Shown: positions 1 to 31,153 of the stretch, piece by piece
Position numbering within the stretch: the first letter of the stretch is position 1
How the letters are laid out: each line of letters begins with the position of its first letter
NCBI GenBank assembly: GCA_046562895.1
Contig: CM102171.1
Location: 24,215,509 to 24,279,508, forward strand
Direction of reading: 5' to 3'
DNA length: 64,000 bases
Source of the DNA: Trichechus inunguis
Taxonomy: Eukaryota
The notes under the pieces: model-generated
Databases searched by the model: none
Seen by the model: only the letters and a program-made list of their open reading frames with translations
What the model was told of the DNA's origin: nothing
Position numbers and translations under genes: made by a program

Positions 1-59
1 AGCAACATGTACTGAGTGGAGGTAGGGCCAAAGACCTACATCTGGCAGGACAATGAGAG
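1..59 (+). pseudogene. MVP: MVP exon fragment (window-truncated), ...[19 protein letters not shown], with in-frame TGA at 13-15
   Basis: Matches human [21 protein letters not shown] with the Arg codon replaced by TGA. Donor AG|gttagt is at 60. Confidence 0.6.
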
Positions 60-300
60 GTTAGTGTGGAGTGGGTTATGTGTGGAGCCCTTGGGGCTAT
101 AGAGGGCCCATTAGGCTGGCTGTCATGGTCACAGTCCGCAGTCCCTTTCTTCCTTCTTTTAGGCAGGAGTGGCCCTCCATCAGGTGATGGGGGAATTCCT
201 GGGGGAATAGGTGGGCAGATTTCTCTCCCATTCACTGCCTCCTTTGGGAGTTGGCGGAGGCCCTGCCTTGGTCTTCACCCCTCTTCTTACCCTCCAGTAG

Positions 301-495
301 GGTACTGTTTGCCCCCGTGCCGTGGTGACTGTCCCCCCACACCACTACTGCACAGTGGCCAATCCTGTGTCCCGGGATGCCCAGGGTTCAGTGCTGTTTG
401 ACGTCACAGGACAAGTACAGCTTTGCCTTGCTGACCTGGAGATCCAGCTGGCCCAGGACCCCTTCCCCTTATACCCAGGGGAGATGCTGGAAAAT
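301..495 (+). pseudogene. MVP: MVP exon homolog (human aa ~43-108) with a 1-bp deletion leading to TGA at 326-328
   Basis: Acceptor ccagtag|G, then RVLFAP, then a frameshift; the other frame reads [58 protein letters not shown]|gt. The exon is 195 nt against an expected 196. Confidence 0.65.
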
Positions 496-2861
496 GTACC
501 TGGCTGCCTCCTCTATGCCCACTCTTCCTGTCCTGCCACCCTGTCCTAGGGCACCACACTACCTTCTGAGGGAAAAACAACCTGGGATAGTGGGAGGAGC
601 TGCGAAGGGACAGGTGCTTACTCTCAGCAGCATGGAATTGACTTATCCCCCCTTCACCATCCTCCCTCAATCACCCCCTCCTCCTCACATGCCCACAACA
701 GATGACCCCTCCTTTGTGAACTGTTGGCCTATCTCATCACCTAGTCTACCAGGCTCAGAGGCTGCTGGAAGCTCCCAGCCAGTTCTGGCACTAAATGACT
801 TGTGCATTTCATTCACACAAAGAGTGCCAGACAGTGTTGGGCAGTGACAAAGCAAAAATGGACAAGTGAAGATCCAGGCTCAGATGGCCTGTTCCAAGGG
901 AAGGCATCAGAGGCCTGAATTCCACCAATGCCTTGTCCGTGCTGCCCTAAGGCCCTGGGCCAGGAGCAGGGGGACATCCCACCCCCATTTCCTTAACTGT
1001 TCCTGCCCCATTACCTTCTTACCATTTTATGCTTTTTCACTCTGGATTCCTCTGCTAACTTGTGGTGGTTATTGATCCTGGGTACATGATAGCATGACCT
1101 GGGGAACTTTCTAAAGCATTGCTGCCCACTTAGATGCAAACAGCTTGAGGGGAATAGTGTGTATGGAGAAGTAATGATGAAGAATGTGATTAAAATGTTA
1201 CCCCTTGGAGAATCTGGGTTGGAAGGGTATATAGGAATTCTTTGTACTATTCTTGCAACTTTTCTGTAAATTTGAAACTGTACAAATTAAAAGTTAAACA
1301 ATAAATTCATGTCCTGGCCCTACCCCATACCAATTAAGTCAATCTCTGGGTAGAGGTGGGGCTAGTTTACACATCAATATTTAAAAGCTTCCCTGGACTG
1401 AGAGTAAAAGCTTTCCTTATCCTTGCCTTGTTTTAGCCTCTGCCGCCTCAAGGATTTGGGCTTCCCCAGCAGCACCTGCCTGTGGTGGCAGCTCATTCTC
1501 TCAAGCCCCAGGTGCTCTAGACCAGGAGGGCAAAGCTTTTCCCTCCTCGGAGCCCAATGCCACTAGACGTTCTTTTTTCACCATTTAGTCAACACTCCTC
1601 CTTCAAGGCATTCACCTCTGGCAGCACCATCGCTTCCTTTCTCACCATCACTGGCTCCGTGGGCCCCTGGCTCAGACCTCCCGGCCACCCCTATCCATCC
1701 TTCTCTCCTGCTAGAACCCTCACTAATATCCTTGCAGATGGCCTTGCCAACAGCTTGGCCTTATTGACCTCAACTCTGAGGACTTTCACAAGTTCTGTTC
1801 TGCTTCAGCCCCTGCCCAACTCCGTGTCCACTTTGGACTGGGTTATTCTCCCACCTGCCCCAACTCTGAGATCTGAACTCCATCCTCTTCCTTCCCACCA
1901 GTTCCCCTCCTTCCTTATCGCTCCTCTGTTGTCTTCTCACCCATCTCTGGATTCTCTTCCTGGTCTTTTTTTAGCTATTCCAACAGGACCTTATCACTTC
2001 CACACTTCTCACAAATTCTATTCCTGTACACTTGACCCTCTGGGACAAAACTGATCCTGGATCAGTGTCACATGCCATCTATCCTTTCCATTATCACACT
2101 CAGGAGGAAGGTTTCTGTTAGAAAAGCTTAGCCATGTGGACAGATGCCACCATGATGACAGTATTATAAATAGCTTATGGATTAAGGGGTTCCTTCCGAT
2201 CTAAGCCCTGTTCACCAGTTCTCTTCCTTTCTAGCCACCTTTCTTCTCATTGTTCTCTGTATACTTCTAAATATTTACAGCTGTCAACTCTCTTCCTATT
2301 TTCTACACCCTCACTTTTGAAGAACTTGGTTACTTACTTAGTTAAAAATTGAGGCCATCAGGCAATATCTGGGTTTGTGTCCCCTCATCTCCCTGCTACC
2401 TGTTGGAGGAGGAGGAGGAGGTTCCCTTCCATCCAGGTGGACCGAGGCTTCTGACCTATCCCACCTATTATGGATTAAACTGTGTCCACCCAAATAATGT
2501 ATGTCAACTTGGCTAGTCCATGATTCCCAGTATTGTGTGATTGTCCGTCATTTTGTCATCTGATGTGATTTTCCTATGTGTTGTAAATCCTACCTCTATG
2601 ATGATAATGAGGTAAGATTAGTGGACGTTATGTTAATAAGGCAGGACTCAATCTACAAGATAGGTTGTGTCTTAAGTCAATCTCTTTTGAGATATAAAAC
2701 ACAGAAGTGAGCAGAACCTCATACCACCAAGAAAGCAGCTCTGGGAATGGAGCACATCCTTTGGACCCAGGGTTCCTGCACCTGAGAAGCTCCTAGACCA
2801 GGGAAAGATTGATGACAAGGACCTTCCTCCAGAGCTGAAAGAGAGAGAAAGCCTTCCCCTG

Positions 2862-3920
2862 GAGCTGGTGCCCTGAATTTGGACTTCTAGCCTCCTACAC
2901 TGTGAGAGAATAAATTTTTCTTTGTTAAACCATCCACTTGTGGTATTTCTGTTATAGCAGCACTAGATAACTAAGACAGAATTTGGTATCAGGAATGGTG
3001 CTGCTCTAACAGATACCTAAAATGTGGAGGCAGCTTTGAAACTGTGAATGGATAGAGGCTGGAAGAATTTTAAAATGCCTAACAGTAAAAGCCTAGACTG
3101 CCCTGAAGAGAGTGTTGGTAGAATTATGGACATCAAAGACAATTCTGGTGAGGGCTCAGAATGAAGTGAGGAGAGCCATTACACTGGGGACAGTACAAAT
3201 GGTGAGAAGCAGCAGCAGAGAAGCAGCGGCAGCAGAACCAGGAGACAAGTGCAAGATGGCACTGGAGCCAACCCATGGAGCAAGAGAGCTGAGTGCCTTT
3301 GGCAGGAGGCTTCCTGGCATGCCTCTAGGCACTTGTTGGTGGAGCTAGGCTTGCCAACCAACAGAGCGAGAGAGCTGAGTGTCTTCCAGCCAAAGTTTAC
3401 TGGTGGAATGGGGTGCTTCCAAGCACTTATTGGTGGAGCTAAAGAGCTTTGAACACTTGACCCTGCAGGGCAGATGCAGGCAGTCCGGCCCAAGGGGCCT
3501 AGAGGCCAAGGAACCAGGAAGCAGAAGCTGAAGAAACAAAGAACACAGGAAGCAGAGCTGCCTCAGTCTCAAAGGGTAGGGCCACGACCTCTGGGGTCTC
3601 AAACGATGGAGTCACCACTCAAATGGACTAGGAGAATGTGGCCACCCAAATTAAAGGGACCAGAGTTGCCGGTTCCAGTAGAAAATTTGTATTCTCAATT
3701 TCACAGATAAAGAGGAATTTTTAAATTTTGGATTTGGAGTTGATTTAAGAATTTTGCTATGATATGATGGGATGAATGTGTTTTAAATGTGGCAGGGACA
3801 CACGTTGTCTTAGTCATCTAGTGCTGCTATAACAGAAATACCACAAGTGGCTTTAACAAACAGAGATTTATTTTCTCACAGTTTAGGAGGCTAGAAGTCC
3901 GAATTCAGGGTGCAGGATCT
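2862..3920. mobile_element. Non-autonomous DNA transposon (MITE-like) with ~100-bp terminal inverted repeats and an internal ~100-bp tandem duplication
   Basis: The segment 2871-2978 is the near-perfect reverse complement of 3806-3910 (ccctgaattTggacttctagcctcctacactgtgag...ccacttgtggtatttctgttatagcagcactagat). Internally, units at about 3290-3380 and 3380-3470 repeat (gagagctgagtg...ttggtggagcta). Confidence 0.6.
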
Positions 3921-4234
3921 AAGGGAAGGCTTTCTTTCTCTGTCAGTTCTGGGGAAATGTCTTTGTCTCTTCAGCTTCTCTTTCCAGATTACTTGGATAT
4001 CTCCATGTGGTTTAGCATCTACCTTCCCCCATCTTTGGTTGCTTAATCTGCTCCTTTTATATTTTGTAAGAGATTGACTCACACACACCCTATGCTAATC
4101 CTGCCTCATTAACATAACAGAGACAACCAGTTCCCAACTGGGATTATAACCACAGGCATAGAGTTTAGGATTTATGACATATATTTTTGGGGGACACAAT
4201 TCAATCCATAACACTTGGTTTTCTCTTCTGCAGG

Positions 4235-4450
4235 ACAAAGGACAGTACCTACCTCAAAGGGTTGTTGTGAAGATTAAATAATACATGTTCACAGCATTCT
4301 CAAGGTACTTGGCACATAGAAAGCTCAGTATAAGTATGAGCAACAAGCTGTTTGAGGGTAGGAGGTGATCTGTCTGGTTTACCACTCTGTCTTCACTGAG
4401 CTTTGGTTTCCTTATCTGTGAACTACATGAGGCTATCATGTCTCTTATAG
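4235..4450 (+). repeat. MIR SINE fragments; the 4258-4306 core is an inverted near-identical duplicate of 5948-6020
   Basis: MIR 3' region (gggttgttgtgaagattaaataatacatgttcacagcattctcaaggt) and a MIR core (ctgagctttggtttccttatctgtgaactacatgagg). Confidence 0.55.
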
Positions 4451-4560
4451 ATTGTTGTGCATATTAATAAATACTGGTGAAGTATACCCAGTCAGCTCCT
4501 GGCACTAAGTGGGTGGGTACTCAGTAAACCTTCCCCTCCCACGGCCTCGCTTCCACTCAC

Positions 4561-4687
4561 CGTCTCAATGGCCAAAGCCTCCAGTTTCAGCTTGGCCTGC
4601 AGGACGAAGTCTTCTCCCTCAATTCGTGCCGCCTCTGCGCGGGACTCAGCCTCTGCCTTGGCTGTCCCGGTGCTCTCCACAGCCGTG
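4561..4687 (-). pseudogene. MVP: MVP internal exon ([42 protein letters not shown]), intact but inverted
   Basis: Minus-strand translation matches human [42 protein letters not shown]. Acceptor is ctag|C, donor ACG|gtgagt, length 127 nt as expected. Confidence 0.7.
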
Positions 4688-4858
4688 CTAGAGAAGGAGG
4701 CAGCCTGGTCAGGCAGGACCCAGGAGGAAGCCCTGTCCTCCTCCCTGGCCTTGATTTAGGCTGTAGTAGCTTTCACCTGCCCCCTTCTCCCTGAGTAGCT
4801 GCTTTTCCGAGACCCTCGGTACCCTACCAACCTCTTCCTCCTCTAGTTCTCAGTGTAC

Positions 4859-4975
4859 CTCAGAGCCTCCAGCTCCAAGAGTTCCCTGCGAGCTCTTTCA
4901 GCTTCTGATTGGTCCAAGATCTTCTGCCTCTCAAGCCGGCCTCGGGCTTCTTGCTCTAGTCTCTGAGCTTCGTGC
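4859..4975 (-). pseudogene. MVP: MVP internal exon ([39 protein letters not shown]), intact but in inverted orientation relative to the rest of the locus
   Basis: Minus-strand translation matches the human MVP coiled-coil region. Splice sites are canonical (ccag|G ... AG|gtacac) and the length is 117 nt, as expected. Confidence 0.7.
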
Positions 4976-5935
4976 CTGGACAGGAGAGGGGACAGGTAGG
5001 ATGCTGGCAGGGGGCCAGATCTGGCACGTGAGCTCTAATGAAGGGACCACCAACCTATCTGTTACCCAGGACAGAACCCCCGCCCATGAAAGGCCCTCAG
5101 GGTGCAAACAAGGGAGCAGTGTGGCTGTTCCCTGTCAGCCAGGTGCATTCTAGGCCCTGGGGGAACACAGCATGATTGATGCCCTGCTGTCACACAACTT
5201 ACCTTCCAGTGGGGGCAAGAATAAACAAAGATAATGTCAGACAGTGGGAAGTACCTTGAAGGTAGTAGAATGGGTGCTGTGAGAGCACATCTGGGCAAAG
5301 GGCACTGCTTCCCTTGGGGCAGAAAGAAAAAGGCTCTCCAAGGAGGTCATCTTTGGGCTGAGGCTGAAGAAGAAGCCAGCCTTGCAGAGTTCGGATTAGC
5401 ATTCTGGGCAGAGGAAGCAGCCAGTGCAAAAGGCCTTAGGGTGAGAACAAGCTTGCATTCAGGAGCAGAAAGACTGCAGCATGTGAGCGAGGGGAAAAGG
5501 CTGGAAGGCAGGTGGCAGGGCAGCAGGGCTGGACCTCAGAGGGCATGGAAGGTCACAGAAAGGAGCTTGGGTTTTATCATGAGCAATGTGGGAAGTCACA
5601 GGAGCAGGGGTGGTATCTGAATCACACTGAGTCTACTACCTGTTGAGTAGACAAAGGATCCTTGGGGGCCAGGATGGCAGTAGGCAGACCATTAAAGGTG
5701 CCATGCAATCCAGGTCCTGGTGGTGGAATGGTGATGGGGACCCCAGAGTGAAGGCCTGGTCTGCAGTTAATGTCACTGAACTGTACTAGTGAAGACTGTA
5801 GAAATGGCAAATGTTCTGCTACCTATATACTTAACCACAATAAAAACAAACAAAAACCCCATGGAGCACAGTTCCACTCTAACACACGTGGTTACCATGA
5901 GTCAGAGCTGATGCAGGAAAAAAAAAAAATAGAAG

Positions 5936-6200
5936 CTTACTCCTCATACTTATATTGAGCTTATAAGCACCTTGAGAATGCTGTGAACATGTATTATTTA
6001 ATCTTCACTACAACCCTATGAGGTAGGTACTGCCCTTTGCCGTGCAAAAGAGGAAACCCAAACTCACAGGTGAAATGACTTGCCCAAGGTCATACAACTA
6101 CTAAATGGATTTAAATTTGGAAAGTCTGGCTCCAGAGTCTTTGCTGTTGACCAGGGTCCTGTACCATTTCCATGTGCTGCTGGAATGAGCCAAGTCTGAA
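5936..6200 (-). repeat. MIR SINE, near complete; its 3' end shares derived substitutions with the 4258-4306 copy
   Basis: ccctatgaggtaggtactgccctttgccgtgcaaaagaggaaacccaaactcacaggtgaaatgacttgcccaaggtcatacaact matches the MIR consensus in reverse orientation. Confidence 0.55.
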
Positions 6201-6649
6201 TGAAGAGGCAGATGAACTTGAGGAGATAAATGCAGTGAAGGATGTAGGGTATGGTAGCTTATTGATGAAGATGGTCTGAAGTTTTTCTGAGCTGCTGACT
6301 TGAAAGATAAGTGTAAGTAAGAACTGAAAAGTGCTGGAGAATGTTGCCCAAGTTCACACACAGCTGAGAGGGAGTAAGGCTGTCGTGGGAACACCAGCCA
6401 GCCTGTAACCTTGACTTCATCCCTCATGTGAAGCTTGCTCTCCAACTTCCCTGACCCTTCTAGCCACAAAGTTTACCTCTGTCCAATGTTCGTACCCAGC
6501 CTGCAGGCCCAACATGGAATGCCTGCCTTCCCAGTCCTTGAAGGCCTTCCAAGGAGCTTCCAAGAATTCCAGCCCTTTGATCTTTTCCATCTTGGAATTA
6601 TTTCTGTCCTAGACAGTATTGTGTATTTTGGCACTCAGTTTACACACTC

Positions 6650-8450
6650 TGGCATTGTCTTGTCTTAATGTCTATTTTGTCTGATATTGATATAGCCACT
6701 CCTGCTCTCTTTTGGCTACTCTTAGTATGGAATATTTTTTCCATTCTTTCCCCTTCAACCTACCGGTAGGTCTACAGTGAGTCTTTTGTAAACAGCATGT
6801 AGTTGGAACATGTTTCTTTGTCCATTTTGCCTTTCATTGGAGAGCTTAATCTGTTTACATTAAAAGTAATTACCAATAAGGAAGGACTTACTTCTGGTAT
6901 TTTGCTATTTATTTTCTGTGTGTCTTCTACATTTTTCATCTCTAATTTCCTCCAATACTGCCTATTTTTGTGTTTAGTTGATTTACTGTAGTGAACGCTT
7001 TTGATTGTTTTTTCATTTTGTTTTGTGTATATTTTTTAAATATTTTCTTTGCAGTTACCAGGGTAATTACATTTAACATTCTAAATTTATAACAACCTAG
7101 TTTAAATAGAAAACAACTTCAAAAAACATACAAAAACTCTGCTCTTATTCTGTTCCTCCTCCCCTCTTTATGTTGTTGTTGCAAGTTACATCTTTGTATA
7201 TTGTGCCTCCAGTGACATAAATTTATCATTATTTTTATGCATTTGTCTTTTAAATCATGTAAGAAATAACAAGTAGCATTACAATACAAAATTACTAGAA
7301 ATATGACCTTTATACTTATTCATTAAATTACCTTTACTAAAGATCATTTTTTATTTCTTCATACATCTTTGAGTTACTGTCTAGTGTCCTTTCTTTTCAA
7401 TATGAAGTGCTCTCTTTAGCGTTTCTTATAGGGCAGGTCCTGTGGTAACAAACTCCCTCAGCTTTTGTTTATTTGGCAATGTCTTCATATCACCCTTATT
7501 TTTTAAGGACAGTTTTGCCAGATATAGAATTCCTGTCTGATAGTTTTTTTTTCTTTCAGTACTTTAAATATGTCATCCTACTGCCTTCTGCCCTCCAAGA
7601 TTTCTAAGGAGAAACCAGCACTTAATCTTATTGAGAATCCCTTGTTTGTGATGATTTGCTTCTGTCTTGCTAGTTTCAAGATTTTCTCTTTATGTTTGGT
7701 TTTTGAGAGTTTGATAATAATACATCTCACTGTGGCTCTCCTACTTGGAGCCCTATCCTACTTGGAGTTCGTTAAGCTCCTTGAATGTGTAGATTTATGT
7801 CTTTCCTCAGATTTGGGATGATTTTGACCACTTTTCTTCAAATAGTCTTTTTGTTTTTTCTCTCTCCTCCTTCTAGGACTCCAGTAGTGCGTATATTAGT
7901 CAGCTTGATAGCGTCCCACAAGTCCCTTAGGCTGTATTCATTTTTCTTCTTGTTCCTCAGTCTCAATAATCTCAATTGCCTTATCCTCAAGTTCATGAAT
8001 TCTTTCTTCTACCAGTTCAAATCTGCTGGTGAGTTCTTCCAGTGTCATTTTCATTTCTGTTATTATACTTTTAAACTCCAGTATTTCTGTGTGGCTCTTT
8101 TAAAAAAATTCTTATTGAAATTCTAGTTTTCTTCCTGTATCATTTTCCCAATTTCCTCTAGTTCTTTGTTCGTTTTTCTTTAGCTCTTTGAGCATATTTA
8201 GTACTGTTGTTTTAAAGTTTTTATCTAGTAAGAATTATCTGTCCTTCCTCAGGGATGATTTCTGTCACTTTATTGTGGTCTTTTGCATGGGCTAGTCTTT
8301 CTATTTCTTCATATATCTTGTTATTTTTTGTTGAAACCAGGACATTTGATGATTACACGGTGGTAACTCGGAATCAGCTTCTTCCCCTTCCCTAAGTTTG
8401 TTCTTCTTCTTCTATTGTTGTTATTGTTATTTTAATTGTTGAAGGATGTA
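6650..8450 (-). mobile_element. LINE-1 fragment in antisense orientation
   Basis: AT-rich sequence with motifs typical of L1 read in antisense (ttgccagatatagaattcctgtctgatagttttttttctttcagtactttaaatatgtcatcctactgccttctg...). Confidence 0.45.
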
Positions 8451-9514
8451 GTGATCTGCTCCAACACGAGGCCCTCACCTGAAGGCACCAACTGTTGCCA
8501 TTCCAACACCTGGCTCCCTGTCTGGGTGCACCAGTCACTGTAGCTACCCCAAGATGGCTGTGCCAAACTGGGGAGAAGGCGGGACACAGACAGGTGGAGA
8601 ACCAATGCTTTCTTACAGTTTATATGTAACCTTTTCTTCATTCAGCATTTGCTTAGATGCTCTAACTCTTTGACTAATTTCCACAGTTCCGAGACTATTG
8701 ATTCCGTTAATTTCTGCTTGTTATTTCAGATTTTGTTGTGGGGGAATCGGAGCATGCTGCTGCTTACACTGCCATCTTGCTCCACCCTCTGGCATTATCT
8801 TGTTTTCCAAACTCTTAGCTGTCTCCCCTATTTCCCTTTGAGGGTCCAGAGCATGCCTACTTCTTCAGACTCTTAGTTGTCCCCCTAGTAACTTTGAGGG
8901 GCCAGAATGTGTCTACTTCTCTATTCTGATCCATAGAGAATGTGTTTGGATCCTGGTAGAAATTTCAGGTTCCTATTTAAGTGGGGTGGTAGGCCTCTCT
9001 CCAACTCTGGTACTTTGTACTACCAGCTTCTCCCACCATAGCCAGTCCTGACTATTTTCACTATAGTCCCTGAAGCCAGGTAGGATACCAAATAGGTACT
9101 CTAATATAAAGCCCTATTCAAGTACTTTGTATTTTACAAAGTTCTTTGCCTATATAAATTCACCTTTCTTGAAGGTAAGGATTATTACACCTATTTTATA
9201 GAAAAGTACTCAAATATTAGCCAGCTTTATAACAGGTATTGCATATGTTTTACATGTATGATCTTTTTTAATGCTTGAAATCCCCTCAAGGTAAGCATTA
9301 TCTCCATTTTACAGGTAAGGGATCTGAGGCTCAGATTAAGGGGCTTCCCATGCACCAAATAAAAGGTGGCATAGCCAAGATTCATGCCTAACTGACTGCA
9401 GCTTTACAACTCCATCCCCTTCACCTTAGTTCCATTAGGCTTGTGGCTAGAACAACTTGCTGGATAATTCCAAGGGGCCAAAGCTAAAAGAATTCTGAAT
9501 TTTTTCTCTTCCAG

Positions 9515-9693
9515 GCTGAGCTCCAATGAGTACAGAAAGTGCAGGAGCTACAACTAGTCTATGCCCAAGCCCAGATGGAGCTGGAGGTGAGCAAGGCCCA
9601 GCAGCTGGGTGAGTTGGACGTAAAGAAGTTCAAATAGATGACAGAGGCCCCAGGACCATCAGGGACCTTGCTGTGGCTGGGCCAGAGATGCAG
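9515..9693 (+). pseudogene. MVP: MVP penultimate exon homolog with TGA (9527-9529), TAG (9635-9637), an internal frameshift and donor GT>AT
   Basis: Translation is [43 protein letters not shown], then a frame shift into TIRDLAVAGPEMQ. The exon is 179 nt against 189 expected, and the downstream dinucleotide is 'at' instead of 'gt'. Confidence 0.7.
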
Positions 9694-10412
9694 ATGAGAG
9701 TTGGGGAAGGCAGGAGAGGACGGGTATTTGTCTTGGGACCAGACTAGAACAAAGAAGGCAAGGCCAGGGAGGCAAATACATCTTTCTAGATGTCTAGAAA
9801 GTTGTTGAGGCAGAGGGATGAGGTCAGACAGCGACTGAACTGCCCCTGTATCATGTATCATGATTTCTGTATCATTTGAGCACAGTATCATGCTCAAATA
9901 CTGTGCTTCCCTTATGTGCCAGGCACTGTACTAGACCCAGTGGTGAGCTGAAGCTCATGGGGAGCTTCAAACAAATAGGACAGCATCAGTCTGTGACAAG
10001 TGCTTCAAAAGAAGTCAAACAGGGTGGTGAGATGATGAGGGGCTGTCTCTTCAGATTAGTCATTTTAAGTAAAGTCATTCTGAGCACTTGAGCCCTCCAT
10101 GGAGTTGAGAAGAGTTTCCTACCAGAGCGTCCAAGTGAAAAAACACAAAGAGGACAAACTTGGTACATTTAATGAACAGGAAAGACTCTGGCTGCAACAG
10201 AGCAAGCAAAGGTGTGAAATGCTGAGCTGTTGGGGAGGTAGTCCCTCAGGTTTCCCTTGTGCTGTTCATTTTTCACTGACTGATCCTTTGAGGATGGGGT
10301 GGCAGACAGCTACAGTGTCAGGCAAGAGTGGCTGGGGGCCTGTCCTAGAGAGGCAGTCATGGAGATAGGAGACGTGACCCCATCTTCTCACCCTCCTCCT
10401 CCCTCCCTCCAG

Positions 10413-10650
10413 GTAAAACTGCTCCAGAGCCTGGGCCTGAAATCAGCCCTCATCACTGACGGCTCCACTCCCATCAATCTCTTCAACACAGCCTTGGGTC
10501 TACTGGGGGCAGGATCTGAGGTTCAGTCCCCAGCCAGGAAGGTGGCTGGTGGGCCCAGTCCCCAAGAAGGCTTGCTTCTCAAGTGCCCCCCCGCTCTTCC
10601 AGCTGTTAGGAACACCCACATGGTGATGAGGAGTACCCCTGTAACCTTGA
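10413..10650 (+). pseudogene. MVP: MVP terminal exon homolog ([32 protein letters not shown]...); the conserved stop is lost and the ORF runs on to 10715
   Basis: A good acceptor (ctccctccag|GTAAAACTG) is followed by a C-terminal domain homologous to human MVP. No stop falls at the human position. Confidence 0.6.
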
Positions 10651-11134
10651 GACAGTTACTAGGGACTACTCTTGTTTGTAACGTGGAGAGGAAGCTGAGG
10701 CAGGGAGAAGACTAACCTGAAGTCACAGTGATAGGTAGTCAGCTTTCCTGGACCTCGGTTTGGGGAGATAAAGCCACAGGTGGGAGGACAAGGCCTGCCT
10801 GGCTAGCCCAGCCAACCCCTCTGGGATGGCTCCTACACTAGCAACATCTTTTCTCACTGCCAGTTCCTCCTGCTGCCCAGCCTGGCCAGGAAGCCCTCCC
10901 TGGAGGTCTAACCCTCCAGCTGTCAGTCATCCATCCCAGCCTCCCACCCCCCTATCCTTTGGGATGCTTCTTTTGGCGCCACCTACTGGTCAAATCGTGC
11001 ACCTGTAGGGCCTGTCAGTATGTCCCTCCTCAGATCAGGGAGGAGGATCTTGCCCAGGGGCAGTAGGAACTGGAGTAGGTCCCTGAGCTTCTGGTCTGGG
11101 CTCTTTGGAAGCATGGAGGGAGGGAGCTAACATA

Positions 11135-11340
11135 ATCAGTTGTTGTTAGCTGCCGTGGAGTCGACTTCCAACCCATGGTGACCCCATGTACAATGGAACA
11201 AAATTCTGTCCGTGCCATCCACGTAATAGGTGCGGATTGAATTGTTCTGATCCATATGGTTTTTATTGACTGATTTTCAGAAGTAGAATGCCAGGTCTTT
11301 CTTCAGAGTCTAAGTCTAGAAGCTCTGCTGAAAGGGGAAG
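11135..11340 (+). mobile_element. AfroSINE-family SINE
   Basis: tgttgttagctgccgtggagtcgacttccaacccatggtgaccccatgtacaa matches the afrotherian SINE head. Confidence 0.6.
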
Positions 11341-12299
11341 GAGCCAGGCGCAATCAGTCTGGTTGCACAAGTGGATGCTATAAGGTGCACCAGTCCCTTC
11401 CAGGTAGTAGAGCTATAGATGCTAGGCATGCCTGGTTGGTGCTCAGGGAATGAAAAGATCCCAGGGGAGGAGGGAAAAGCTTGGGCTTACTCACCATATG
11501 GCTACAGGAGGCAACTCAACCTCTCTGACCTCCTTTCCTTGTCTATGAGATGGGCCAGCAATTCCCCTACTGAATAGGGTTGGTGTGAAGGTGCAAATGT
11601 AATGGATGACTTCTTCTTAGGGTCTTATTCCTTTTCCCCTACTGGGGCCTAACACCATGGGCCTTCTATCTTTTTAAGCTGAGTTGCATTTGTGTGGCCA
11701 ATGGCTCCACTCAAGTATGAGTTTGTTGAGGCAAGGACTGTCTTTGTTTAGTCCATAGCACTCAGTGGTGCTGGCTCAATGTTGATGGAATAGGTAAGTG
11801 AGTCAGCCTCCCATCCTCCCAAAGCTCTCCTACCTTTTCCCTTAGGAGAGGCGATTAATTTAGAGCTCTGAATCTGGTTCCTGGTGCATATTAAGTGTTA
11901 AAAGTTAGCATTGTTTATTACTAAGGGCCTCTAGGGATGGGTGACAAGTAGGCAAGATTGGCCAAAGTGGATATGTGGTAGGTTCCTTCCCATCTCAGTC
12001 CCCGCTCCTATGGGCATCCTTTGACCTTGTCATTGCTAATAACCACATAGCCTCTAAAACCTCAACCTTGCTGCCCCATCCTCACCTTCCAAGCAGCCAT
12101 TTCTCTACCTCAAAGCTTCAGTGTTAACCTCAACAACTTTCTCATCATCCACAACCTCCTTTTCATTTTCATCTTTGTCCAGCTTAAAGGGTCTATCAGT
12201 GCAATCACTGACTTGAAACCTCCCTTAACTCCCTCGCCCCTCCCCCTCCCCATGACACTTAGTGGGAAAATCCCATCCCTTCTTCTACCAACCACCCCT

Positions 12300-12326
12300 T
12301 GCCGTGCCTGCCTGCCTGCCTGCCTG
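12300..12326. repeat. (CCTG)n microsatellite
   Basis: gcctgcctgcctgcctgcctgc. Confidence 0.8.
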
Positions 12327-13775
12327 CGCCTGACTAGCTGCATGCTGTTGGAAGAGAAATACCCCACCCTGCTGATAGAGCTCATTTGAAACTCATGGCA
12401 GCAAATTTCAAGGGATGCCTAATGGGCTCTGACTACCCTTCTCTATCTTGTGTGAGATTCCCCTTTCAAGACAACCATTCACACCTCCTCTCTTCTCAAC
12501 TACACCTCGGCCCACTTTCTCTCACCTCATTGAGAAAATAGAAGCAAATTGGGCAGGAAAGTCCGCCCCCTCCCAGCAGCAAATCTAACAAACCATTGGC
12601 ATCTGAACTCCCTGTCTTCCTTCCTGTTCCCACAGAGGACGTGCCCTAGCTCCTCACTGCCCACCCCACCCCCCACCCCTGCCCATAGATCTCACCCCAT
12701 CAAGGCCTCCAGGGCTGCACTCCATGGCATCTGCAGCCTAGCCTGACTGCTACATCTACCTCGCAGGATTGTAAGACCCAATTAGGTAACATGGGAAACC
12801 GCTCTTTAAATTGTATGCATGAGGATGGACCCAGCACTGACTGTAGAGTGGGACAGATACATCCCAGTGACAGGCAAATAGGCCTTGCTGGAAATAGTGG
12901 AGCTCAGTTTACATCAGAGCCAGATTCCAAGTCAATCCCTTCAGGGACAAACACTTGTTACCAAATTACTCTTGAAAGTCTCTTAAATTGCCCATAAAAT
13001 ACAGTACAGTATGATCTCCGATTAAATTCAACACAGCCCATCTGTTTTTCTCCAGCATTGGGCTTTTCTTTGGTTGAGTACCAGATGAAGTAACTGATTA
13101 GTTTAAGGACCCATTTTATAAGAATCTATGTCTTTAAACAGCAAAATCACATTCAGCATGGTCAGATGCTATTTATCAAACCTATTTCCTCTTCTTCCTA
13201 GGCCCACACACGAATCTATATTTCACAACCTCCTTGCACTTCGATGCATCCCTGTGACTGAGTTGTAACCAATGAAATGTGAATGGAAGTAACATGTGCT
13301 AATTCCATGCCTTCCCAAGCCTCATGCATGATGCAAACAGGCAGGGCAATCTTGGAAGCCATGTGTTAACAATAGCGGAACTCTAAGATGGGAGCAGCCT
13401 GAGTCCCTGAATCACTGCTTGCAGGAGAAGCTTCCCAGTCAGGAGCACCTGACAGGCCTTTACATGAGTTAGAAATCAACTTCCTTCGTGGTAGAGCCAC
13501 CACACATTTTGGGGTTTGTTACAATAGCTAGTGTTACTTTTGATCACACTTTGAGACCCAAGACCACCTGAGAGAACAGCAGTCTTGGTAAGATCTCATG
13601 CCCTCTCTGAGGCACAGGCTTATTGAGTGGAATGAGCAAATGCATTTTCTGCATGGTAGTTATTCCTTCTGTCCACAAGCATATAGTTGAATTCCAGAAA
13701 GTTATACTGCACATACAGTGTGACTCCACTAGATTCCGTAGATCAAATATAGTGACTCCAGGACCCAATTCAGAA

Positions 13776-13936
13776 ACCCTGGTGGTGTAGTGGTTAAGTG
13801 CTATGGCTGCTAACCAAAAGGCTGCTAACCAAAATCTACCAGGCGCTCCTTGGAAACTCTATGGGGCAGTTCCACTCTGTCCTATAGAGTCACTATGAGT
13901 CAGAATCAACTTGACGGCAACGGGTTTGGTTTTTTT
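13776..13936 (+). mobile_element. AfroSINE (tRNA-derived SINE)
   Basis: ggtggtgtagtggttaagtgctatggctgctaaccaaaaggct...tatagagtcactatgagtcagaatcaacttgacggcaacgggtttggtttttt. Confidence 0.8.
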
Positions 13937-14248
13937 GGGACCCAATTCAGCCCAGACTTCCCCTATTCCCCACTCCCTACCCTAAACCCCCAAGGGGTCA
14001 CAGGTCACAGGTTCCAGGCTATGAATGCAGGGTCTGTGCTCTGCAGGTTCTTCTTGAGTTCAGTCCAGCCACTGGACATGGGACAGAAGGTAGCAGACTG
14101 ACTTCCAGACCTCTCCCATGGGAGAGGGGCTAAAAAGCCCTTCCTGGGGTCCTCAGTGCTTCTACTTGAGTGGAAGGTGCTCACACTCTCCTCCCCAATT
14201 CGCCCTCCTTTTCTTAGCTCACACAGAGCTGGATAAGTTACAGACTTC

Positions 14249-14256
14249 TGACGTCA
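14249..14256. promoter_or_regulatory. Perfect CRE palindrome TGACGTCA in a small CpG-rich patch (14.25-14.76 kb) between the MVP remnant and CDIPT
   Basis: Exact 8-mer; the surrounding 500 bp is moderately CpG-rich. Confidence 0.25.
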
Positions 14257-16215
14257 CTGTAAGCACTAAGGAGCCAGTTGGGGCTGCGGGAACCGGCAGG
14301 GCAGAGGGTTCCCTGCTCTTAGGCCTGGGCGAGTGCTCAGAGGGCTCATTTGGCTGGAGAAGACAGCTGACTCGCAAAGGACAATGGGAAGGAAAAAGAG
14401 CTCCAGAGCAGAAGCTGGGAGGGCACCTTTCCTACCGCCCTCTCAGGGCGCAAGCTGCCCCTTATTCGTCCCCCACCTTGACTGGGAGCAGGAAGCCGGA
14501 CAGGGGCACACTGGAAGTTGGAGGGGCAACTCAGCTTTGTGCATTATCCTTCTCGAGCCAAAATCCTTCCTTGCCACTGCCCTGCTTAAAGCCTTTCAGT
14601 GTCCATCCCAACTGTCTCCAAAAGAGGTCCAAGACGGTCTGCTGCAGCGTAGCATTGTTCACAGTAGCCGGACCTGATTAAATAATTCACGGAATAGTGT
14701 GCAGCCATTATGAGGACTGCCGAAACGGCGGCGCTGAGTACCCTCAGTGTTAAGAGGGCAGGCTCTGGAGCCAAACTGGCCAGTTTGGGACCCTCTCAGG
14801 GACCTCAATTTCCTGTCTGTAGAATGAGCACAATAACAGGATTATCATATCGTATGTAACGGTTCTTAGATGAAATAACACAAAAAAGCACTTAGAACAG
14901 CGGTAACTTGTTAGCAGGGCAGCGAATATATAGAATGAATTTTAAAATATGGAAATCTCTATGTACAGATGTAAGGGATTTATTTAGACAAATACACAAG
15001 AAATTAGTAGTAGTGGTTGCCTCTAGGGAGAGCTGACAGCTTGAGGCGGGAAGAGACTATTTTGTCATCCTTCTACAGTGTTGGAAGTTTTATGTGAATA
15101 TTGTACCTATTTAAAACAAAAATCCCCTCAGCAGCTCCGTGTGGCCCTCAGGATAAAGTCTAAATGCCCTACAAGGCTCCTCAGGCCGTCCTGCTGGCTT
15201 CTTCTGCCTCATCTCTCATCAGCGCCCCACCTCACCCCCAGCACTTAAGTGTTTCAGCTGAATCGATCTACTTCCATTTCTGCAGTTTCCCAGGGTGCTC
15301 TCTGGCCTCCCTGCCGCTGTACTATTCCCTCCTCTGCTAGCCCTTCCCTCCTCAATCCCTATGCAGCTTGGGTTACCCACCCCCTTCACCAAACCTAAGC
15401 GAGGTTTCTACTCCCTAACCAATCTGTTTTTGCTCCTCTGTGACTGTGACCTCCAAGAGGGCTCGGAAGCCAGCCGCACAGCTCCCCACTGAGTCCCCTG
15501 TGCCTAGAACAAGAGTTGAAGCTCAATACACATCAGCTAAGTTTCAGCTCTTCTGGACACCAACTGCCTCTTGGGCCACTTGGCTGAGCTTTATGAGGAT
15601 TAAATGAGTAACATCTGCAAAGAACCCCCAGTACAGGGTCTGGCAGATGGCAGGCCCAATATAGTTTTCAAAAAGAAAGCAGGTGCCAGGCGGCAGAGAA
15701 AGCTCAAATAGTAGGAGTAGCTGTTAGGGACTGATGCCCAGAACAATGTCTAGTACATGCTAGGTGCTCAAAAACTGTTAAAATTGCAGACTTCTGGGCC
15801 CACTATCCCTAGAGTACACTTTGAGAACCCAACCGATCTGTTCACAAATATTTACTAAGTAGCTACTATACGGCACGTTAAGGTTAGTCTTCACTCCAGG
15901 GGCAGAGAAGGGAACAAGAAAAGTAGGTGCCCTCATGGAGTTTACATCCTAGTGGGGGTAGAAAATACCAAGTATACAAATAAATGTAGACAATGTTATA
16001 AATAACATTATAAAGCAGGTGGGTAGAGACAACATGGCATGTGCTTGGGTGGCAGAGAGGGCCTTTGAGGGTACCGTGGAACAGCAGAAAGGAGCCAGTC
16101 AGCAAACTAGGGACCCAGCTCCATTTTCCTTTTTTTCCCTAAGGCTCCCCTGGACCCAGGCCCTGGTCCAAGAGTTTCTCAAAGGAAACCAAGTCCAGAT
16201 AGTGAAGTTCCCACC

Positions 16216-16221
16216 TTTATT
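16216..16221 (-). promoter_or_regulatory. CDIPT: Candidate CDIPT polyadenylation signal (AATAAA on minus)
   Basis: A tttatt on the plus strand lies about 530 nt downstream of the stop. Confidence 0.3.
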
Positions 16222-16749
16222 ATCAAGGCTTCCAGGTCCAGGGTAGACAGGACAGAGGAAACTGCAACAGAGAAGGATCTAGAAGGTCCCTTCCCTCCTG
16301 GGTGTGGTGCCCCCAGGCTGCCTCTGCCCAGGGGTAGAAGCCTGACTCCCCTGCCTTTTGGGGACCCTGGCCCCTACATCATCTCCCTCACTCAAGTGTC
16401 CCTAAAATCTTGGCCAAGCCAGCCTCCAGGGCTGTGTCAGCAGGGCATGACAATGCCCAATCCTCAGGCCTCCTGGGGCCCCAGGGTATCATCACCTGTA
16501 TAGGTGGGGCCCTTGAGTATCCTTCCTCAACAGAAGCCCAGGTCCTTGGGGCTCACAGGGGTGGGACTAGTCCTCAGGAGTTTGGAGAACATGACATCAC
16601 CAAAGAGAGGCTGACCCCTATCCCAGTGGGCTGGACAACACATTAGGAAGATGTAAGACTGGGACCTCCTAGGAGGGGAAGGGGAGCCGTGTGGCACAGT
16701 GAGACTCCCAGGGCAAGTGGGTGCTGGGGGACTGGAGGTTCCAGGGTCA

Positions 16750-16892
16750 TTTCTTTTTGGCACGGTCTGCCGCGTCCAGGGCAGCCATGTTGCGGGCGGC
16801 TGTGATCAGGTGGATGACACTGATGACGGACTTCAGCAACGCAATGGGGGCAGTGATCCAGAGGCCCATGCGGAAAAGACCCACAGAGCCAA
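16750..16892 (-). CDS. CDIPT: CDIPT exon 6 (last): VGSVGLFRMGLWITAPIALLKSVISVIHLITAARNMAALDAADRAKKK*
   Basis: Close match to the human CDIPT C-terminus. The stop is RC(tca) at 16747-16749 and the acceptor is cccacag|TT. Confidence 0.9.
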
Positions 16893-17022
16893 CTGTGGGA
16901 AGGAAGCAGGGGAGAGACAAAGGAAATGAGATGCAGGGACCGGCCTAGGAGTCTGAGGCCTTCACCTCCCCTGGCAGGCCAGAAGCCCCTCCCACCCTCC
17001 TGTCCAGCCCCTCAGCTCCTAC

Positions 17023-17104
17023 CTAGTGGTCCCTCGGAGAAACTGAACAGATAGAGGAGGCAGTAGAAAAGCTCATTTCCAGCACACAGAACGAACAGAG
17101 CAGG
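17023..17104 (-). CDS. CDIPT: CDIPT exon 5: PALFVLCAGNELFYCLLYLFSFSEGPL
   Basis: Homology to human CDIPT; acceptor tgcag|CCT and donor G|gtagga. Confidence 0.85.
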
Positions 17105-17487
17105 CTGCACAAACAGAAAAAAGGCTGCTTAAGCAAGAGGGCAGGGCAGTATACCCCTTCCTGCCCGGCCCACTCACTCAGGGAAAGGGAGCCCAAACTC
17201 TCAGGCAGGTAGGTAGCAGGGAGGAACATATGGGGGGGGGAGGGGCGGGGGAAGGGGTGTCACAAGCACAAGGGCCTCATTTCCATTTGCTGCCTGGAAC
17301 AATTCATAGTCCTCCCCACCAATCCTGCTCTTTCGTGTCTCAGCTTACAGGCTCCTCCTTCCCTGGGAGACTGGGCTGGCTGTCCCTCTAGGCTGCCTCT
17401 CCTAACTTGGGACCAGGGCTCGGACCAGGGCGCAGCCTAAGATCTGGCATAAGCTAAGTGAATAAAGGGAGGGGTAGAAATACTCAC

Positions 17488-17569
17488 TCTGGAGGTATAG
17501 TAAATCCGAAGCACCGGATTCCCAGACAGGTCGATCATTTTGTGACTTTCACTGCCTCGGACCACAGAG
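17488..17569 (-). CDS. CDIPT: CDIPT exon 4: SVVRGSESHKMIDLSGNPVLRIYYTSR
   Basis: Homology to human CDIPT; acceptor ccaag|C and donor AGA|gtgagt. Confidence 0.85.
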
Positions 17570-18043
17570 CTTGGGGAGTAAGTAGGGGGTATCCATGAGT
17601 TTACATTACCACTAACATCCCTCTAAGTCTCACATCGACCCCATGTAGTAGGTACTGGGATTGCCTCTGTTGTACAGATGAACTGGGGCACAGATGAGGA
17701 CCAGAGTATCTTGTCCAAAGCCCCATGATTACCTAGTTAGGGGCAGAGTCAGGATTCAAATGCCACATTCGAAAGCTCTCACACCCCTTCTCACGAGCTA
17801 TTACCCATTTGAAATCCTGGAAAATCCAGCCAGAAAGGTCTTAAGAATTGCTTAATTCAACTGTAAATAGGACTGACACTGATTCAGAGAGGGTCAGGAC
17901 TTGGCATGGGCAAAGCAGAGGCTCAAAAATGAAGACCCCCCAAGAAGCCATCCCAGACACCCTCCCATTTAGTCTCACCCCTCCCACCGTAGTGTCTTCT
18001 TCAACCTGTCTACTCCTCCAGGCATCCCAGAATCGAACCAGAC

Positions 18044-18197
18044 CTGTGGAGGTGCAGCCAGTGGCTGGCCACGTCCAAGCTCATACTGAGCTGAAAGAGA
18101 AGGGTTGCTCGAGGGTACAGCAGGGCCAGGTTGACCAGCAGACACATGGTGGAGCAGCGGTCCGTCAGCATATCCAGCATGGCCCCAAACCGGGTCC
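18044..18197 (-). CDS. CDIPT: CDIPT exon 3: GTRFGAMLDMLTDRCSTMCLLVNLALLYPRATLLFQLSMSLDVASHWLHLH
   Basis: Homology to human CDIPT; acceptor tttttcag|GG and donor AG|gtctgg. Confidence 0.85.
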
Positions 18198-18929
18198 CTG
18201 AAAAATCAGGACTATTAGATGGGAAGGGGCTGTTAGGCGCAATGGACCCACGACACATGCCATAGTTGGTGTATCACTCTGATGCAGACTCTAGAAGATT
18301 GGAAGTGTTCACTATTCACTGCCTGGGGAGAACAGCAGGCTGATATCAGTGGGAGTGAGAGGTCAATGGGCAAGAGTCACCATGATATGAAATGAGAAGG
18401 CAAGGGCATGTAGAGGGAACAGTTTAGGATGGGGGTGGACAGCTATCTCTACAACTCATCAATCCCAGAGCCAAGGCTCCAGGTCAAGACAGAGAGACTT
18501 GAAGTCTCAGTGGAAGTCTCAGAAGTGCGTCTGGAGAACAGATTTAAAAAAATAAGTCAGTCTTCCAGAAGCCATGGTTTCCCTCTCCACTCTTCCTCTA
18601 AACATGCCTTCCAGAATCCCTATTGCTTGTGTCTGGCACACAGTAGGCCCTCAGAAAACACTTGTTGGATTCATATTCAAAGAGACCCTCAGCACTGCCA
18701 CAGCCGTTCAGTCTTGCTATCCGACATCCCTCACAATCAGTTAAGTGTTTTTCAAGAACTAGCTTAAATCTCTTCTGATACAAAACCGGGCCATTCTGTT
18801 TGCTTTCTATAGAGATGGGAATGACAGAGCCCTTCAGACTCCCCAGTTCCGGCCCACCCTGAGATCCTGACGAGGAAGGGGGCAGGGAGTTGTCGGGCCC
18901 CAAAGCTGGCTGGGAGAGGTGTCTGTCAC

Positions 18930-19064
18930 CTTGATTAAGGGCTCGAGCAGCGTGTCCATCGAAAGCATCCAGAAGTCCGCTGAGCAGGTAGAAGGACGAG
19001 GCCGTGAGGGGGCAGCAAGGCATGAAGTAGAAAGAAATGATAGCGAAGACGATCCGGGCATAAC
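18930..19064 (-). CDS. CDIPT: CDIPT exon 2: YARIVFAIISFYFMPCCPLTASSFYLLSGLLDAFDGHAARALNQ
   Basis: Homology to human CDIPT (CDP-alcohol phosphotransferase motif region); acceptor cccaag|GT and donor G|gtgaca. Confidence 0.85.
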
Positions 19065-19159
19065 CTTGGGATGGGGAGGGGGGAGACAGACGGTGGGGTT
19101 CACGGACTCGCCCAAGGTTCGTTGCCCCAGTTCGCCCTAGGGCCGCAGGCAATACTCAC

Positions 19160-19202
19160 CGATGAGGTTAGGCACGAACAGGAAGACATTTTCGCCTGGC
19201 AT
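19160..19202 (-). CDS. CDIPT: CDIPT exon 1 (start codon): MPGENVFLFVPNLIG
   Basis: ATG = RC of 19200-19202, matching human MPDENIFLFVPNLIG, with donor G|gtgagt. The six exon lengths sum to 639 nt (213 codons), as in human CDIPT. Confidence 0.85.
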
Positions 19203-28528: not shown

Positions 28529-29215
<687 letters not shown>

Positions 29216-29306
29216 TCAGGGCGCCCTTCCAGTCTCGCAGGCCTCGCCCCGGGGCGCCTTCCCGGGCTTGCTGGCCTGCTGGAGCTCTACCCATCTTGAG
29301 CGCCTA

Positions 29307-29546
<240 letters not shown>

Positions 29547-30310
29547 CTACAACCGGCCCCTCCCATTCAGTTCTGCCTAATCCCCAACTCTGTTCATTAG
29601 TAACTCTACCTACTCCCCAGCCCACCCCCATACATCACAGGTTTCTCCCCTTTGCTAGTCCCTTCACGTTCCACTAGTTCTGTGGCTCCTCCCAGTTCCT
29701 GCTGCCCAATCCCTAACCCCGCTCATTACTAATTCTTCCCCTCTCCAGTCTCTCCTCCATCCCCACAGATCCCAGCCTAGCCCAGCTCCAGCTCTGGCTA
29801 ATCACAGACAGTGCTCATGACCACCCTGCACAACTCCAGACCCTGTTGGAGTACCTGCTTTTTGGCTTGCCCACTCTGGTTCTGTCCAGTCACATGACCA
29901 CCTCATACTAAATCAGCTCAATGGATTCTCCCTATCCCCACCTTCACCCTGAGTGCTGGTGATGATGACACAGCTTGGGCCTGGGTCCCTGGAAATCACT
30001 CCAGGGGCAGCCTCAGAAATCAGCGAAGGCCAGAGCCCCTTTTTCACAAAAGCCCCTAAGGAAGGCTGCATTACCCCCACTTACTTGTCCAAGGTCACCT
30101 GGCTAATGAGTGATTTGAACCTAGGTCTACTGGCCACCCCTTCCCCCCATCATGAATCCTTTGCCCCACTTTTCTTGGACGATATATTCACTGAATCTCG
30201 TGTAGAAATAAAAGGGCCAGTCAGGCTTAGAATGCAAGCTGATCAGCCAACATAAGACACTTGACTGAGCCCACACCCACACTTGGCTGAGCCTACACTC
30301 ACACCCTCTA

Positions 30311-30544
<234 letters not shown>

Positions 30545-30859
30545 TCATTTGCACCAGTCTGCTTCAAACATTTCCCATTATCTATTATCCACTTGTTTCT
30601 TGCTACTTCTAGGTCCTGTTGCGCCCAATCCCTAACCCTGCTCTTAATGAACGACACCCGCTCCCCAGCTTGCCCATCACCACCATCCATGACTTAGCGC
30701 AATTCCAATTGTGGCTCTTGAAGGCGTTTGGGTTTGTGACGCCTGAATTCTATAACAAGTCTACCAATTATTCAGCTAAGAAAACTGCTGAGGCTCTGAC
30801 AGGAACAGGATTTACCCAAGGCTTCGATATGAAGGTCTCTCTCCTGAATGACCTTTCTA

Positions 30860-31153
<294 letters not shown>

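Follow-up and report, generated by a model that had tools for sequence, protein, structure and literature searches.

How can two apparently intact exons of a gene come to lie on the opposite strand from the exons that surround them? The question is raised by a stretch of 64,000 nucleotides from Trichechus inunguis (GenBank assembly GCA_046562895.1, contig CM102171.1, positions 24,215,509 to 24,279,508 of the forward strand), referred to below as the window, in which exons 12 and 13 of MVP, the gene for the major vault protein, are read on the minus strand between other MVP exons that are read on the plus strand. A sequence-only reading of the window had ascribed this arrangement to a local inversion with inverted duplication at its breakpoints. 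The inversion is confirmed here, and it lies within a pseudogene, psiMVP, which represents the original MVP at its ancestral position. The history as a whole, in which a decayed ancestral copy underwent a staggered-break inversion with a short interspersed element (SINE) at the junction and was later altered by gene conversion, is regarded as probable with considerable confidence.

An inverted segment with a duplicated breakpoint

A tblastn search of the window with human MVP, a query that matches the representative sequence of the primate MVP cluster with 100% identity, returned six MVP blocks. Exons 2, 3, 14 and 15 are on the plus strand, as had been stated for the flanking blocks. Exon 12 (4859-4975; tblastn 4980-4861) and exon 13 (4561-4687; tblastn 4689-4561) are on the minus strand, where their translations correspond to human amino acids 673-712 and 713-755, respectively. 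Both are open and carry an AG acceptor and a GT donor, just as first described.

The arrangement was compared with the functional MVP loci of the congener T. manatus (the manatee of the comparisons below; locus L003), Elephas (L002) and dugong (L004), and with the loci of armadillo (L008) and tenrec. Of these, armadillo and tenrec serve as true outgroups; the elephant, manatee and dugong genes are afrotherian paralogues that retain the parental arrangement. The intact paralogue is thus known from T. manatus and its relatives, the comparison drawing on assemblies other than that of the window.

Against the manatee locus, the MVP part of the window resolves into direct and reversed blocks. Block A (1-2464, plus strand), from exon 2 to early intron 3, matches L003 10067-12534 and armadillo L008 10067-13097 directly; its MVP homology ends at 2464, beyond which exons 4-11 (L003 12535-22997) are missing. 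A repeat block without MVP homology (2465-4216) follows and abuts block B, the inverted segment (4217-5767, minus strand), which corresponds to L003 24536-22998, Elephas L002 25632-24129 and armadillo L008 33787-32395. On the parental gene, block B spans 1.55 kb, beginning 37 bp past the end of exon 11 and running through exons 12 and 13 up to a MIR element in intron 13. Next to it lies a non-MVP junction insert (5768-5933, plus strand) that has no counterpart in L003, and then blocks C to E (5934-11330, plus strand), which comprise intron 13, exon 14, intron 14, exon 15 and about 0.7 kb of 3′ flank and are direct to L003 24401-30433. The same pattern of inverted and direct matches was obtained with Elephas, tenrec and armadillo. 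In armadillo, in tenrec and in the functional genes of elephant, manatee and dugong, exon 12, exon 13, a single MIR and exon 14 lie in line, and because this order is common to all comparison loci, it is the window that is derived: its segment is inverted relative to the ancestral order. The comparisons with which the proposal was to be checked agree with this, as the window set against itself yields a pair of inverted arms, and the elephant MVP locus has its exons in line with block B reversed.

The two arms account for the duplicated breakpoint. On the parental sequence, blocks B and C have 136 bp in common (L003 24401-24536), and this overlap is present twice in the window. The left arm (4217-4349, about 133 nt, minus strand) is the inverted 3′ part of the intron-13 MIR; it is contiguous with inverted intron-13 sequence, the stretch that in the parental gene comes before the MIR. 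The right arm (5934-6061, about 128 nt, plus strand) is the same MIR segment in parental orientation, and it continues into the remainder of the MIR (to about 6170) and then into intron 13. An inverted-repeat search paired 4217-4310 with 5965-6058 (94 nt, 91% complementary) and 4321-4349 with 5934-5962 (29 nt, 86%), while in a gapped alignment the arms agree at 111 of 126 positions (88%), the right arm additionally having an 8-bp deletion. The bracketing stretches had been placed at 4258-4306 and 5948-6020 and described as near-identical; an inverted pair does exist there, but the true arms are larger, and near-identity does not hold. With the outgroup exons in line, one MIR in each outgroup and the 136-bp overlap, the proposed inversion with inverted duplication stands. 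The layout fits a parental order L-M'-a'-R that was broken at L/M' and, in a staggered manner, across a', with M'a' rejoined backwards to give L-a-M-a'-R.

Relative to a MIR consensus, both arms have the same private indels, which also occur in the one orthologous MIR of tenrec, and exactly one copy of the intron-13 MIR occurs in every other MVP locus examined, namely those of armadillo, tenrec, elephant, manatee and dugong. Judged by these features, the arms are copies of one MIR insertion and not independent insertions. The duplication of one MIR had been argued from derived substitutions shared by the arms; the substitutions that they share are all present in the parental MIR already. Over the 136-bp overlap, they have zero changes in common that are absent from the functional genes, the private changes numbering 5 on the left side and 7 on the right. 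At 6 sites where the functional genes of sirenians acquired a new base, neither arm has departed from the ancestral state.

These differences also bear on the age of the inversion. The arms are 92.5% and 89.7% identical to the elephant MIR, slightly more than the 88% that they are to each other, and manatee-elephant identity across the MVP locus is 0.89-0.90. The lack of exclusive shared changes and the similar private loads are compatible with the arms dating from the inversion itself. Because the arms are about 10% diverged and have no exclusive changes in common, the inversion is likely to be old: barring later conversion between them, the arms would have parted at about the manatee-elephant split or earlier, tens of millions of years ago. 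Given that age, the inversion is predicted to occur in other sirenians as well.

A pseudogene at the ancestral MVP site

The exons around the inverted pair are in decay. The exon 2 remnant (1-59, plus strand; tblastn 1-72; human amino acids 23-46), inside which the window starts, has an in-frame TGA, and the exon 3 remnant (301-495, plus strand; tblastn 310-495; amino acids 46-107) is frameshifted by a 1-nt deletion and differs from the manatee functional exon by 14 mismatches and 1 indel. Exon 14 (9515-9693, plus strand; tblastn 9512-9702; amino acids 756-821) contains two stops and a 7-nt deletion and has lost its donor through a change of GT to AT at 9694-9695, and exon 15 (from 10413, plus strand; tblastn 10407-10625; amino acids 817-889) has a 1-nt deletion and no longer holds its stop codon. 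An open reading frame (ORF) at 10299-10715 had no match on record in a protein look-up. For exons 4-11 (amino acids 108-672), no match to human MVP was found by tblastn anywhere in the window. In total, the copy has three premature stops, three frameshifting indels, one broken splice donor, exons 4-11 gone and exons 12-13 inverted. Because of the stops, the frameshifts, the lost donor and the missing exons, the copy is dead. The inversion is to be seen as lying in a pseudogene at the ancestral site rather than as the disruption of a working MVP. Neither the lesions of the surrounding exons nor the absence of exons 4-11 had been noticed in the sequence-only reading.

The position of psiMVP is revealed by its neighbours. 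CDIPT (16747-19202, minus strand) has six intact coding exons and serves as the positional anchor; the protein rebuilt from the window is identical to the CDIPT of Trichechus manatus latirostris and of T. inunguis, the T. manatus CDIPT locus is 98.7-99.3% identical to window 6808-29221, and the gene is colinear with the CDIPT loci of armadillo and tenrec. It is arranged tail-to-tail with psiMVP at a distance of 6 kb, psiMVP being on the side of CDIPT opposite to the functional MVP. Downstream of the MVP remnant, CDIPT is followed in order by Sushi ORFs of SEZ6L2 type, an Asp/Asn beta-hydroxylase ORF of ASPHD1 type and a BTB ORF of KCTD13 type, with exons at 28526-39105, 44453-45583 and 61034-61786, respectively. 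This is the order of human 16p11.2, where the genes are arranged as PAGR1-MVP-CDIPT-SEZ6L2-ASPHD1-KCTD13. In armadillo, CDIPT likewise lies tail-to-tail with MVP, 7.7 kb after it, and window 1-19054 is colinear with the armadillo MVP-CDIPT region, intergenic part included, with the inverted block as the sole exception. In dugong, MAZ-like, PRRT2-like and PAGR1 genes occur in that order, an MVP exon-2 copy follows 9.9 kb past the PAGR1 stop, and the functional MVP lies 105 kb further; the 44 nt of this exon-2 copy that overlap the window are identical to window 1-44, the TGA included.

Because of the colinearity with armadillo MVP-CDIPT and the position of the dugong pseudogene exon 2 just after PAGR1, psiMVP is the parent that has remained in place. 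It is the original gene at the ancestral PAGR1-CDIPT site, and the working MVP of Afrotheria is a DNA-level duplicate relocated beyond KCTD13. The functional MVP of T. manatus (885 aa; scaffold JH594776.1, 2,607,158-2,626,711) is about 76 kb from CDIPT (2,702,405-2,704,860), on the SEZ6L2 side, and in tenrec the distance to CDIPT, again across SEZ6L2, is about 80 kb. From psiMVP itself, the working copy of the manatee is separated by about 80-95 kb, and over manatee, tenrec and dugong the relocated gene is 76-105 kb away from the ancestral site. A tblastn search with a PAGR1 query of proven quality detected no PAGR1 in the 10 kb upstream of the functional MVPs. Past the stop codon, the functional copy remains homologous to the parental locus for about 0.7-0.9 kb, and from the side of psiMVP this homology stops at about 11330. 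In the literature searched, no description was found of an MVP pseudogene, or of the loss or relocation of MVP, in elephants, manatees or Afrotheria.

Three other accounts of psiMVP were considered. Loss of MVP in this species, with psiMVP as a unitary pseudogene, is ruled out by annotated intact MVPs (885-891 aa) in elephants, manatees and dugong, the manatee copy and CDIPT sharing a scaffold. That psiMVP is part of a daughter gene, inserted close to CDIPT and already rearranged at birth through template switching during the duplication, was suggested by the downstream flank of tenrec, which matches the flank of the functional copy, and is ruled out by colinearity with armadillo over the whole intergenic region and by the dugong exon 2 after PAGR1. 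Simple tandem duplication, with psiMVP directly downstream of the functional gene, is ruled out by the CDIPT-KCTD13 block that lies between the two copies.

As for the time of relocation, the duplication is likely to be old because tenrec already has the relocated gene. With armadillo as the outgroup, site patterns conflict: 53 sites place psiMVP together with the functional genes of manatee and elephant, leaving out tenrec, 24 unite manatee and elephant without psiMVP, and 23 unite all three functional genes without psiMVP, noise being 7-9 sites. Such a conflict would fit an old duplication after which psiMVP was converted by the functional gene along the paenungulate stem. Identity between psiMVP and the functional gene is accordingly a mosaic by block (A 0.90, B 0.93, C 0.81, D 0.86, E 0.81).

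A few observations on MVP copies were made in passing. Downstream of MVP in Asian elephant (L002 36439-37755) is a second, about 70%-identical copy of the region 1.3-2.8 kb past the manatee MVP stop (L003 30890-32311), a copy that represents a repeat or, alternatively, an ancient duplication within the locus. In ground squirrels, an 'MVP-like' protein is on record alongside MVPs on two contigs (P0124, P0198, P0211), and in the tamarin Saguinus oedipus two short ORFs of the MVP C-terminus are located on different chromosomes (P0017, P0025).

Origin of the inversion and later overwriting

What broke the DNA may be read from the right junction. The insert at 5768-5933 resembles a 5′-truncated AfroSINE-like element whose A12 tail (5918-5929) points to the uninverted flank and is separated from the right arm, which starts at 5934, by the four nucleotides TAGA (5930-5933). 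It aligns, tail included, to the 3′ two-thirds of an A-tailed SINE copy at 39925-40156 (reverse strand); no homology to it was found in any MVP locus compared, nor was a direct target-site duplication found around it. The parental site at the start of the right arm is CTCAAAG/AGCTT, which is A-rich and a poor match to the L1-endonuclease motif TT/AAAA, the junction bases having drifted. Because a truncated A-tailed SINE sits exactly at the junction, the staggered break was most likely made by L1-endonuclease nicking in the course of SINE retrotransposition. Two types of tail are present in this SINE family in the window, A-rich, as in the copy at 39925-40156, and T-rich, as in an AfroSINE-like element at 13761-13951, whose 3′ end is (GGTTT)n/T-rich and which is flanked by an unambiguous target-site duplication of 13 bp (GGACCCAATTCAG).

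The sequence of events may be envisaged as follows. A duplicate MVP would have been placed beyond KCTD13, leaving the original between PAGR1 and CDIPT to decay. Inside the dead copy, a 1.55-kb piece, running from the end of intron 11 through exons 12 and 13 and into intron 13 as far as the MIR, would have been cut out and rejoined backwards. One of the breaks would have been staggered across 136 bp of the MIR, and the filling in of both ends would have left an inverted repeat flanking the piece. During the retrotransposition proposed above, it would be the 'reciprocal' DNA end that was inverted before ligation. Much later, in the Trichechus lineage, the functional MVP overwrote about 730 bp of the inverted piece by non-allelic gene conversion.

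A replication-based mechanism had been offered in the sequence-only reading, and no specific pointer to one was found, the truncated A-tailed SINE at the junction pointing to retrotransposition breaks instead. Such a mechanism would take the form of in-place template switching, of the type known as fork stalling and template switching or microhomology-mediated break-induced replication (FoSTeS/MMBIR), in which the fork copied exons 12-13 backwards and resumed 136 bp upstream, the SINE and the repeat block being later arrivals or templated fillers. The 136-bp overlap of two blocks on the parental sequence, the non-MVP sequence at both junctions and the large deletion adjoining the inversion would all be in keeping with it. 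However, the retroelement is 5′-truncated, its A-tail stops 4 nt short of the arm and it lacks a target-site duplication, features that mark a break made in retrotransposition and not a later insertion. No microhomology is demonstrable at the junctions, and template switching is considered unlikely.

Non-allelic homologous recombination between two pre-existing inverted MIR copies is very improbable as the cause of the flip. The arms are long enough to support recombination, and inversions of this kind can flip repeatedly; however, a single MIR is present here in the MVP genes of armadillo, tenrec, elephant, manatee and dugong, and two MIRs inserted independently would be expected to show an identity of about 70% and no private indels in common. 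Moreover, the left arm is truncated and its inner flank is parental intron-13 sequence, as expected for a duplication made by the event itself.

The left side of the rearrangement is less simple. At its two ends, 2465-2978 and 3806-4213, the 1.75-kb repeat block carries the same repeat in opposite orientations, with a complementarity of 83% over 116 nt and of 98% over 45 nt. The repeat is taken to be L1-3′-end-like, and the outer ends of both copies coincide with the edges of MVP homology. The block may have arisen as another inverted duplication, or it may be one composite element. Copies similar to the repeat occur at L002 1916-2430, L003 27609-28089 and L003 36093-36576. The second of these is a piece of about 480 bp in intron 13 of the manatee functional MVP, absent from the elephant gene and from psiMVP, and the third is a 91%-identical copy of it 6.5 kb downstream of the gene. 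The L1-like copies in and after the functional MVP suggest further sequence exchange within the locus.

The intactness of exons 12 and 13, which had drawn attention to the locus, has another source. Block B is about 0.83-0.88 identical to the manatee functional gene at both ends and 0.95-1.00 in the middle, and a tract of about 730 bp (4633-5362, minus strand) is 98.8% identical, as opposed to about 88% in its flanks. The tract differs from the manatee functional gene at 9/729 positions and its flanks at 99/802 (Fisher p = 8e-20), and up to 204 nt in a row are identical. The tract is not simply conserved, because the manatee and elephant functional genes differ there at 73 of 711 positions (94/791 in the flanks). 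From this contrast in identity, it is well established that the working gene overwrote part of the inverted relic by non-allelic gene conversion. Exon 12 lies wholly in the tract (1/117 differences from the manatee functional exon), and exon 13 is cut by the tract edge, its 8 differences all being on the 3′ side of window 4633, outside the tract. The two exons thus look intact because the functional MVP recently overwrote the tract; they are open and have splice sites, as claimed, but they owe this to conversion and not to preservation. Part of the residual 1.2% difference is probably the gap of about 0.4-0.7% between the genome of the window and the T. manatus assembly.

The direction of transfer can be judged from the site patterns in the tract. 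At 3 sites, psiMVP agrees with T. manatus against dugong and elephant, a Trichechus-specific state; private states number 9 in dugong, 4 in T. manatus and 2 in psiMVP, and at 1 site psiMVP has the elephant state. psiMVP therefore carries both sirenian-derived and Trichechus-derived states, and the functional gene has no excess of private changes within the tract (4 in T. manatus versus 9 in dugong). These patterns indicate that the conversion ran from the functional gene to psiMVP, in the Trichechus lineage after its split from dugong.

It may be asked whether exons 12 and 13 have been kept intact by selection because the inverted segment is used, for example as a pair of exapted exons or to produce RNA antisense to MVP. 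In favour of this, the reading frames of both exons are open, their splice sites match the consensus, and exon 12 is 99% identical to the functional exon. However, the lesion density of the other exons, about 7 per 660 nt or so, would lead one to expect about 2.6 lesions in the 244 nt of exons 12-13, and zero would arise by chance in about 7% of cases; intactness is thus weak evidence, and gene conversion explains it better. The high identity extends over 730 bp, and because this stretch is mostly intronic and its sharp edges ignore exon boundaries, cutting exon 13, the tract looks like plain conversion rather than selection. The unconverted half of exon 13 has three radical replacements (G to D, S to F and A to L), and every other exon of the copy is disabled. 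Selection on the pair is accordingly given very little likelihood, and the inverted segment is without function. It is highly doubtful, too, that psiMVP, if transcribed from the old promoter next to PAGR1, acts as a natural antisense or small interfering RNA regulator of vault-protein expression in sirenians, although its predicted RNA would hold about 240 nt antisense to MVP exons 12-13, 204 nt of which are identical to the functional gene.

An assembly artefact, with a contig or read block in the wrong orientation, is hardly credible: the inversion is known from one assembly and the region is repeat-rich, but misorientation can neither yield two 136-bp copies that differ by about 10% and by an 8-bp deletion nor account for the SINE tail where the segments meet, the window is free of Ns, and the sequence on both sides of each junction has an old, independent divergence.

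Several points weigh against the proposed history of a staggered break during SINE retrotransposition in an old pseudogene. The junctions at 4.2-6.1 kb are read from a single assembly, the T. manatus comparison locus reaching only window 6808. The SINE match of the junction insert is weak, about 60-65% by eye over about 140 nt, and the TAGA between the A-run and the arm is not an exact match to the parental AAAG. The 136-bp overlap is much longer than the usual target-site duplication of 7-20 bp, and longer than the 4-15 bp reported for L1-driven cases (bioRxiv 10.1101/2024.12.14.628481). The dating assumes that the arms never converted each other and that rates are clock-like. Finally, the left junction abuts the repeat block, so that the loss of exons 4-11 and the arrival of that block may have come before the inversion, in the same event or after it.

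Known counterparts and biological meaning

The rearrangement is of a kind that has already been described, an old neutral event inside a pseudogene. In the staggered-break model, which includes cases with only one breakpoint duplicated, the duplicates measure 46 bp-1.9 kb and their average identity is about 88% (Ranz et al. 2007, PLoS Biol 5:e152; PMC1885836). Here, too, a breakpoint sequence that was ancestrally single-copy is now found inverted at both ends, one breakpoint is duplicated, and the 136-bp duplicate of psiMVP, with its identity of about 88%, falls within that range. The inversions of Ranz et al., however, are of chromosome scale, in Drosophila, and many of them involve genes, whereas the present one is 1.55 kb long, lies in a mammalian pseudogene and duplicated part of an old MIR.

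A second counterpart is provided by L1-driven rearrangements in experimental systems and tumours, in which polyadenylated insertions are accompanied by an adjacent inversion of about a kilobase and by a duplicated overlap between the break ends (bioRxiv 10.1101/2024.12.14.628481). psiMVP has in common with these local inversions, which are associated with target-primed reverse transcription (TPRT), a polyadenylated 5′-truncated insert between the inverted stretch and the uninverted flank, a duplicated overlap, and an inverted piece on the scale of 1 kb, comparable to the 917-bp example of the preprint. It departs from them in the length of the overlap (136 bp versus 4-15 bp), in having a SINE as the insert rather than an L1 or cDNA, and in being a germline event that would have been fixed tens of millions of years ago, so that its junctions have drifted and the link to retrotransposition is an indirect one. 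By analogy, the inversion appears to work like a TPRT-associated local inversion and would not be a typical member of that group.

The locus also resembles cases of gene relocation with decay of the parent, having a functional daughter elsewhere, a disabled parent among its ancestral neighbours, and mosaic identity with sharp-edged tracts. In the familiar textbook disease cases of gene conversion, it is the pseudogene that donates sequence to the gene. At the present locus, the roles are reversed, the functional MVP being the donor and the inverted pseudogene segment the acceptor.

The inversion itself is of little consequence, as it lies in a copy that was already dead or dying, and its by-products, namely the relocation of MVP, the relic at the ancestral site and the SINE at the inversion junction, are more useful. 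The locus nevertheless offers a clean mammalian case, polarised by outgroups, in which an inversion led to the duplication of its own breakpoint and a retroelement is preserved where the ends were joined, and it would tie a class of rearrangement found in L1-active cells and tumours to an old germline event. For annotation, it cautions that gene conversion can make lone pseudogene exons look functional. It also brings to light an apparently undescribed part of afrotherian history, in which the working MVP is a relocated duplicate and the original persists in sirenians as a relic.

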